A DNA stretch of 64,000 nt from Escherichia coli (lineage in GTDB: Bacteria; Pseudomonadota; Gammaproteobacteria; Enterobacterales; Enterobacteriaceae). The position numbers and the translations under genes are program-made. This document shows positions 42,086-42,715 of the stretch, piece after piece. Numbering within the stretch: position 1 is the stretch's first letter; each line of letters begins with the position of its first letter. The notes under the pieces are model-generated. The model saw nothing but the letters and a program-made list of their open reading frames with translations, made no database searches and was not told the DNA's origin. The stretch lies in assembly GCF_003334815.1 (NCBI RefSeq), contig NZ_QOWO01000002.1; one strand, written 5' to 3'.

Positions 42086-42715
42086 ATGAAAAGCCTCTCC
42101 TATAAGCGGATCTATAAATCACAAGAATACCTGGCAACGTTGGGCACAATTGAATACCGATCATTGTTTGGCAGTTACAGCCTGACCGTTGACGACACGG
42201 TGTTTGCGATGGTTTCTGATGGTGAGTTGTATCTTCGGGCTTGTGAGCAAAGTGCACAGTACTGTGTAAAACATCCGCCTGTCTGGCTGACATATAAAAA
42301 GTGTGGCCGATCCGTTACCCTCAATTACTATCGGGTTGATGAAAGTCTATGGCGAAATCAACTGAAGCTGGTGCGTCTGTCGAAATATTCTCTCGATGCA
42401 GCGCTGAAAGAGAAAAGCACGCGCAATACCCGGGAAAGACTGAAAGATTTGCCCAATATGTCTTTTCATCTGGAAGCGATTCTCGGGGAGGTGGGGATTA
42501 AGGATGTACGGGCGTTACGTATACTTGGGGCAAAAATGTGTTGGTTGCGACTGCGGCAGCAAAACAGTCTGGTGACAGAAAAGATTCTGTTTATGCTTGA
42601 AGGTGCCATTATCGGCATTCATGAAGCTGCGCTCCCGGTGGCACGCCGCCAGGAGCTTGCAGAATGGGCTGACTCTCTTACGCCGAAACAGGAGTTTCCT
42701 GCGGAACTTGAGTAA
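42086..42715 (+). CDS. sxy: Competence regulator Sxy/TfoX, 209 aa
   Basis: 209-aa ORF MKSLSYKRIYKSQEYLATLGTIEYRSLFG...; matches Sxy. Confidence 0.85.
   Translation: MKSLSYKRIYKSQEYLATLGTIEYRSLFGSYSLTVDDTVFAMVSDGELYLRACEQSAQYCVKHPPVWLTYKKCGRSVTLNYYRVDESLWRNQLKLVRLSKYSLDAALKEKSTRNTRERLKDLPNMSFHLEAILGEVGIKDVRALRILGAKMCWLRLRQQNSLVTEKILFMLEGAIIGIHEAALPVARRQELAEWADSLTPKQEFPAELE

Follow-up and report, generated by a model that had tools for sequence, protein, structure and literature searches.

Convergent overlapping genes of bacteria share short 3' ends, with weakly conserved C-terminal extensions that arise from the loss or shift of a stop codon. Bidirectional terminators between convergent genes were reportedly described by Ju and colleagues in 2019. 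In the model of Wang et al. (2022, bioRxiv 10.1101/2022.10.23.513370), the stem-loop of such a bidirectional terminator positions the head-on collisions of polymerases in convergent pairs. Dar and Sorek (2018, PMC6061677) characterized 3' stem-loops of Rho-dependent transcripts, which are stable and GC-rich, lack a U-rich tract and lie soon after the stop codon.

The convergent pair formed by sxy (tfoX) and yccS in Escherichia coli is compared here with these systems. According to Conway (2014), yccS closes the yccF-yccS operon, and the sxy and yccS operons converge. ExcludonFinder (Sanmartin et al. 2025, NAR, PMC12288877), in which excludons are overlapping transcription units found in at least 50% of 58 MG1655 transcriptomes, lists sxy-yccS among 165 convergent excludons. 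The overlap of the two genes is ordinary, and it is already present both in the reference annotation and in this published list of overlapping transcription units. The hairpin described below, which lies within sxy next to the overlap, is undescribed so far within the literature that we searched.

The junction was analyzed in a window of 64,000 nt from an E. coli genome (contig NZ_QOWO01000002.1), and the coordinates of its features are collected in Table 1. A sequence-only reading of the window had reported a 38-nt overlap between the 3' ends of sxy and yccS, and this is exact in the sequence itself, in the list of open reading frames and in the RefSeq annotations of K-12 MG1655 (sxy 1021138..1021767, yccS 1021730..1023883) and two other E. 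coli strains, one of which is only 91.7% identical over a 1-kb junction query. On the E. coli chromosome, the gene order around the junction is ompA-sulA-sxy-yccS-yccF-helD. Both are genuine genes, with recognized domains and with homologues across the Enterobacteriaceae, and together they form a convergent overlapping pair. Sxy carries Pfam domains TfoX_N (residues 14-106) and TfoX_C (residues 116-194), and YccS, with FUSC-like and FUSC_2 domains, belongs to the FUSC-like family of inner-membrane proteins (Pfam).

Table 1. Coordinates of the features at the sxy-yccS junction, given as positions in the window
Feature	Position	Strand	Description and source
sxy (tfoX) CDS	42086..42715	+	209 codons and TAA at 42713-42715; ORF list, RefSeq
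yccS CDS	42678..44840	-	TAA at 42680..42678; ORF list, RefSeq
ORF-shared stretch	42678..42715	both	38 nt; sequence itself
Inter-core spacer	42668..42725	both	58 nt; holds both variable tails and both stops
Stem-loop GCUCCUGGCGGCGUGCCACCGGGAGC	42631..42656	- (yccS-sense RNA, 42656..42631)	sxy codons 182-191 (ALPVARRQEL); folding, covariation
C-rich, G-poor stretch	42480..42630	- (yccS-sense RNA)	C/G 2.04 over 150 nt, up to 3.4 in 78-nt windows

For each gene, the shared 38 nt hold 11 complete sense codons and the stop, preceded by 2 nt from one more codon. They encode Sxy residues 198-209 and YccS residues 709-720, the first codon being partial in either case, together with both stops. The two frames are phased such that codon position 1 lies opposite position 1, position 2 opposite position 3 and position 3 opposite position 2, and with this phase none of the overlapped bases is a third codon position in both genes. 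At its other end, yccS is annotated in two ways (44831-44840), with PGAP and the longest open reading frame using the ATG at 44840 (720 aa) and K-12 MG1655 a start three codons later (717 aa).

The sxy-yccS region was found in all 5426 complete E. coli genomes (5426/5426). Four of the 5428 matches to it come from records that carry a plasmid label, and two copies occur in at least one genome; these matches may reflect misassignment, a large chromid-like plasmid or duplication. Identity bands obtained in these genomes for queries of 161 nt and 1001 nt were set aside, as their resolution is too unlike for a comparison of constraint.

One genome per GTDB species yielded 80 Enterobacteriaceae loci with sxy, and yccS lies downstream of sxy on the opposite strand in every one of them (80/80). 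The open reading frames overlap in 76 of the 80 species, but the length of the overlap is not conserved. The 76 overlaps measure 4, 7, 11, 14, 16, 20, 23, 32, 35, 38, 41, 44, 47, 80, 88 or 98 nt. When genera are assigned from the record titles, the overlap is 38 nt in Escherichia (41 in E. albertii), 14 and 23 nt in Salmonella, 23, 32, 38 or 47 nt in Citrobacter, 44 nt in Enterobacter and Lelliottia (16 in one Enterobacter locus, L053), 16-20 nt in Leclercia, 7 nt in Kosakonia, 4 nt in Buttiauxella and 80 nt in Trabulsiella, and the Kluyvera loci lie between a gap of 11 nt and an overlap of 98 nt. In the four loci without an overlap, the genes abut in one (0 nt), are 11 nt apart in another and are separated by insertions in the other two, which measure 249 nt and 2286 nt.

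At the long end of this range, the yccS frame is open for 88 nt (L044, 4534-4621) and 98 nt (L079, 4521-4618) into sxy and runs through the hairpin described below, which counts against a role of the hairpin as the 3' stem-loop of yccS. The spacers between the conserved cores in these two loci are 53 and 49 nt, and therefore a frameshifting indel or an assembly error is the likely origin of the long overlaps, L044 being a metagenome-assembled genome.

The variation in length is confined to the ends of the two proteins. In alignments, the conserved part of Sxy closes with W194, where the Pfam match to TfoX_C ends too, and the conserved block of YccS ends at ..LLPEIGRL705 or ..LLPEIGRLQRQI(709), about residue 705-709. 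Past these cores, the tails differ in length and their sequences are unrelated among the 80 species, and both tails fall outside the Pfam domains. Structures in the PDB comprise only isolated TfoX_N and TfoX_C domains of other organisms, which end at the equivalent of residue 198 and leave the Sxy tail uncovered.

The spacer between the cores is far more uniform than the overlap that it contains, being 58 nt long in 50 of the 81 loci measured and falling within 48-59 nt in all of these but one, L052; two further loci without an anchor match (L051 and L082) stand outside the 81. Within the 58-nt frame, which is shared by Escherichia, Salmonella, Citrobacter, Enterobacter and Lelliottia (50/81 loci), the overlap takes values of 14 to 47 nt, and loci with other spacer lengths range from the 11-nt gap to the 98-nt overlap. 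Mean column entropy is 1.09 in the spacer, compared with 0.65-0.67 in the flanking cores and 1.16-1.37 at the third codon positions of the cores. The overlapped DNA thus evolves about as fast as silent sites and is near-neutral, even though each of its bases is non-synonymous for at least one gene. Neither tail appears to be under noticeable constraint, and judging by these alignments the tails made up of overlapped codons appear to be dispensable.

With the cores 58 nt apart and stops placed at random, the probability of an overlap is 0.78 at 3/64 stops per codon and 0.84 at the six-frame stop frequency of the window. These values agree with the 76 of 80 species observed, and the overlap of sxy and yccS is no more than is expected by chance. 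Since the two cores are packed 58 nt apart, overlap is the default outcome; it is the close packing, and the lack of a terminator between the genes, that call for an explanation.

The sequence-only reading had allowed that transcripts might terminate before the overlap. A scan of 41300-45400 on both strands found no terminator in or beside the overlap, and no terminator-like site on either strand within 190 nt of it. An Rfam scan of 40800-45500 at E<=1 returned only a chance match to a snoRNA model at the start of sxy (21.6 bits, where the gathering score is 36). Plus-strand RNA that spans the junction has no folding advantage over shuffled sequences (z = -0.97), and downstream of the sxy stop, within the yccS core, there is no conserved structure on either strand and hence no candidate for a sxy 3' end. 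RNA past the sxy stop has a C/G ratio of about 1 and no C-rich stretch.

The yccS-sense strand differs from this, as a GC-rich hairpin begins 21 nt past the yccS stop, 19 codons ahead of the sxy stop and thus within the conserved part of sxy. In E. coli it folds with -18.9 to -20.3 kcal/mol. There is no U tract, the minus-strand RNA after the hairpin reading GCAGCUUCAUGAAU, and the hairpin was rejected as a canonical intrinsic (Rho-independent) terminator for this reason. Beyond it on the same RNA lies a C-rich, G-poor stretch, which by its composition and by analogy may be a candidate Rho-utilization region.

Conservation of base pairing identifies this hairpin as the selected feature of the junction. 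Across the 80 distinct sequences, 94.9% of the stem cells are in standard pairs, compared with 39-54% in controls that shift the partner by 1-3 columns, and two-sided changes occur in four of the ten stem pairs (16 cells). None of 500 shuffles reached the observed value on four of five measures, and on the fifth, the count of pairs with two-sided changes, it was matched by 7 of 500. The same helix was recovered by RNAalifold. Several of the paired changes are synonymous in Sxy: Leu191 goes from CTN to TTR together with Ala182 from GCG to GCA, and Glu190 from GAG to GAA together with Leu183 from CTC to TTA. A further covariation joins Arg188 CGC to CGT with residue 185 GCN to ACN. Leu183 is encoded by the minor codon CTC in 73 of the 80 sequences.

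Codon choice in sxy was compared with a synonymous resampling control in which codons were drawn from the yccS usage of each genome. The mean MFE is -20.4 kcal/mol for the observed sequences and -11.7 kcal/mol after resampling, and for 62 of the 70 distinct sequences no more than 5% of the resamples fold as well. By synonymous and compensatory changes, the hairpin is kept in about 75 of the 80 Enterobacteriaceae species; the loci that keep the overlap and have weak hairpins are L053, L054, L056 and L065. These results show that selection at the junction acts on the stem-loop embedded in sxy and not on the 38 nt shared by the two genes.

Taken together, we consider that the overlap is probably a passive by-product of ancient tight packing, and that the stem-loop within sxy is what has been selected, most plausibly as the 3' end of the yccF-yccS transcript. 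Each frame runs on from its conserved core to the next stop, with no intergenic DNA between them, and stops come and go by point changes and small indels, producing anything from the 11-nt gap to the 98-nt overlap. On the account that we prefer, the yccF-yccS transcript would pass its own stop, fold the stem-loop at 42631-42656 and end just past it. Non-canonical termination could produce this end, or Rho could terminate transcription farther downstream, with the RNA then trimmed 3'-to-5' as far as the hairpin. For the yccF-yccS mRNA, the stem-loop would then be either a terminator or a shield against exonucleases. It could alternatively position the polymerase collision of the convergent pair, as in the model of Wang et al. 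(2022). The supplements of Adams (2021) name none of yccS, sxy and yccF, and our search found no published map of these ends.

An RNA structure that is embedded in a coding sequence should be held open by translating ribosomes. In the sxy-sense direction, ribosomes translating these codons would accordingly keep the structure from closing. Whenever both genes are fully transcribed their transcripts overlap because the open reading frames do, and with a yccF-yccS end at the hairpin the complementarity of the two mRNAs would extend over about 85 nt or more (42631-42715), well beyond the 38 nt shared by the open reading frames.

This complementarity leads to the main regulatory alternative, in which the overlap is itself a selected device, a convergent excludon. 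Transcription of yccF-yccS into sxy and of sxy into yccS would lead to polymerase collision and/or to RNase III cleavage of the paired 3' ends, and would make the expression of the competence co-activator Sxy and the transporter YccS mutually exclusive. The pair belongs to the core excludon set of E. coli, and the convergence and the tight junction persist not only across the Enterobacteriaceae but also in more distant syntenic loci. Moreover, the ExcludonFinder authors count a terminator hairpin located in the neighboring gene as stronger evidence of relevance (PMC12288877). Against this, any two expressed genes with overlapping open reading frames would score as an excludon, such that the listing adds little, and the length of the overlap is unconserved and its sequence near-neutral. 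Adjacency is also not specific to the pair, as the whole ycbZ-matP-ompA-sulA-sxy-yccS-yccF-helD block is syntenic. No functional link between Sxy and YccS is known to us, and the literature naming both genes (Conway 2014, ExcludonFinder) holds no reciprocal-expression data for the pair. We therefore regard a selected regulatory overlap as unlikely.

The sequence-only reading had seen in the shared 3' end a scope for transcriptional interference or antisense pairing. Its premise stands, as the open reading frames overlap and the published excludon listing agrees, but regulation of either gene by it is at most a possibility, and the 38 nt carry no sign of selection. An unconstrained overlap sequence may still be compatible with a regulation by convergent transcription that is independent of sequence. 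A more specific version would have the yccS stem-loop, by its position in the synonymous sites for the conserved C-terminal domain of Sxy, make the yccF-yccS transcript an obligatory antisense to the last ~85 nt of the sxy mRNA, with collision or RNase III cleavage shortly ahead of the sxy stop helping to keep Sxy very low in E. coli; we think this improbable.

A second alternative accepts the selected hairpin and assigns it to the other partner. The hairpin would act in the sxy mRNA (plus strand), or as DNA, and not for yccS, by slowing ribosomes towards the end of sxy, by setting the stability of its mRNA or as a palindrome bound by a protein. The plus strand does fold well, and sxy of Haemophilus is under post-transcriptional control through mRNA structure, which in that case is located in the 5' region. 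The non-Watson-Crick cells of the alignment allow the strands to be compared, as they are mainly compatible with pairing on the minus RNA, where 79 of them are G.U, against 13 on the plus RNA. When distinct stems are counted, wobbles specific to the minus strand number 18 and those specific to the plus strand 1. Forty-eight of the 79 minus wobbles come from one column, in which Gln189 CAG alternates with Arg189 CGG, and without this residue-189 column the asymmetry is a modest one of 10 minus against 4 plus distinct stems. The minus RNA is also the more stable one in 70 of the 80 sequences (means of -19.6 and -17.2 kcal/mol for minus and plus), although the species are phylogenetically related and neither the wobble nor the stability counts are independent. 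Across species, the hairpin thus folds better on the yccS-sense strand.

In E. coli taken singly, the strand is ambiguous, as one pair favors each strand and the energies are -20.3 (minus) and -19.3 (plus) kcal/mol; the GTG codon of V185 in Escherichia is a wobble on the plus strand only and speaks for the sxy side. The compensatory changes in the stem, on the other hand, favor base pairing over a sequence-specific protein site.

Loci in which the genes have come apart bear on the same question. Where an insertion has pushed the genes away from each other, in L051 and L052, the internal hairpins are two of the four weakest (-5.9 and -9.5 kcal/mol), and the hairpin has thus decayed in the two species in which yccS has moved away and sxy is intact. 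In L051, an uncultured Enterobacteriaceae genome with a 249-nt spacer (4625-4873), new palindromic hairpins occur just past the sxy stop (4651-4686) and just past the yccS stop (4836-4864). The insertion in L052 (Superficieibacter electus, 4616-6901) places 2.3 kb between sxy and yccS and contains two minus-strand open reading frames, of 200 aa and, for a membrane protein, of 425 aa.

The more distant loci share the synteny of the block from ycbZ to helD, which is complete in most of them. Two of these outgroups have a gap between the genes (44 nt in L088, at ~4630-4670; 36 nt in L092, at ~4131-4166), and in both a strong palindromic hairpin fills the gap beside the yccS stop; it could serve both strands. 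In L090, where Sxy is 43% identical and the overlap is 26 nt, a different and perfect 13-bp hairpin lies in sxy codons 174-185 (4022-4053). It folds with -26.4 kcal/mol against a synonymous expectation of -9.2 kcal/mol, a value reached by 0.2% of the resamples, and it looks like a second, independent instance of a hairpin placed within sxy. As a perfect palindrome it does not discriminate between the strands, which leaves room for a role in sxy. No strong hairpin was found in the outgroup loci L084, L085 and L091, which, like L053, L054, L056 and L065 with their weak ones, are counter-examples. The weak hairpins of L051 and L052 and the hairpins of L088, L092 and L090 point to use of the structure on the yccS-sense (minus) strand, and together with the wobble and stability counts they make a role of the hairpin for sxy, or as DNA, doubtful.

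The overlap is not a sequencing or annotation error: an artefact in which one gene truly ends sooner is hardly conceivable, as nothing speaks in its favor (between K-12 and PGAP, only the start of yccS is annotated differently), the earlier true stop that the sequence-only reading had named as a possible objection was looked for and is present in neither frame, so that the overlap stands, the relative stop positions are identical in the three annotated E. coli records, the region occurs in every complete genome searched, and in four of five Escherichia species loci both frames are open to the same position, the yccS frame of E. albertii being one codon longer.

Returning to the reading that we prefer, a passively formed overlap beside a selected stem-loop, the locus illustrates cleanly how the drift of stops in unconstrained tails lets tail-to-tail overlaps arise and change in length. 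It also appears to be a case in which the 3' stem-loop of one gene is kept within the conserved coding sequence of its neighbor by synonymous codon choice. This has practical consequences, as the inferred 3' end of yccS would be lost on a clean deletion or codon optimization of sxy, and altered expression of yccS could act on sxy in cis.

Compared with other convergent overlapping genes of bacteria, sxy-yccS does not differ in kind: the shared 3' end is short, and the C-terminal extensions are weakly conserved and go back to stop loss or shift. At this locus the evolutionary process is directly visible. The likeness to the other pairs found by ExcludonFinder is that the transcripts overlap and that the inferred 3' stem-loop of yccS lies inside the transcription unit of its neighbor; if real, the hairpin would be a fresh case of a terminator or 3' stem-loop within a neighboring transcription unit. 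In most of those pairs the genes are separated by intergenic DNA (mean 95 nt), and their terminators are predicted by TransTermHP (PMC12288877). Unlike them, sxy-yccS has no intergenic DNA, and a simple terminator scan is blank at the junction.

With the bidirectional terminators of convergent pairs (Wang et al. 2022), the junction shares a stem-loop that does not resemble an intrinsic terminator. Bidirectional terminators sit between genes, whereas the E. coli hairpin is inside sxy and cannot end the sxy mRNA without truncating it. An intergenic bidirectional terminator was also considered for E. coli and rejected, the sole conserved stem-loop in the window being upstream of the sxy stop. The palindromic hairpins of the outgroups L088 and L092 are intergenic and of the bidirectional-terminator type.

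In its sequence features, the hairpin resembles the 3' stem-loops of Dar and Sorek (2018). The hairpin at 42631-42656 is a stable stem-loop past a stop codon with no U-rich sequence, and a C-rich, G-poor stretch follows downstream. What sets it apart from those stem-loops is that it lies within a conserved coding region of the neighboring gene and is maintained via the synonymous sites of that gene.
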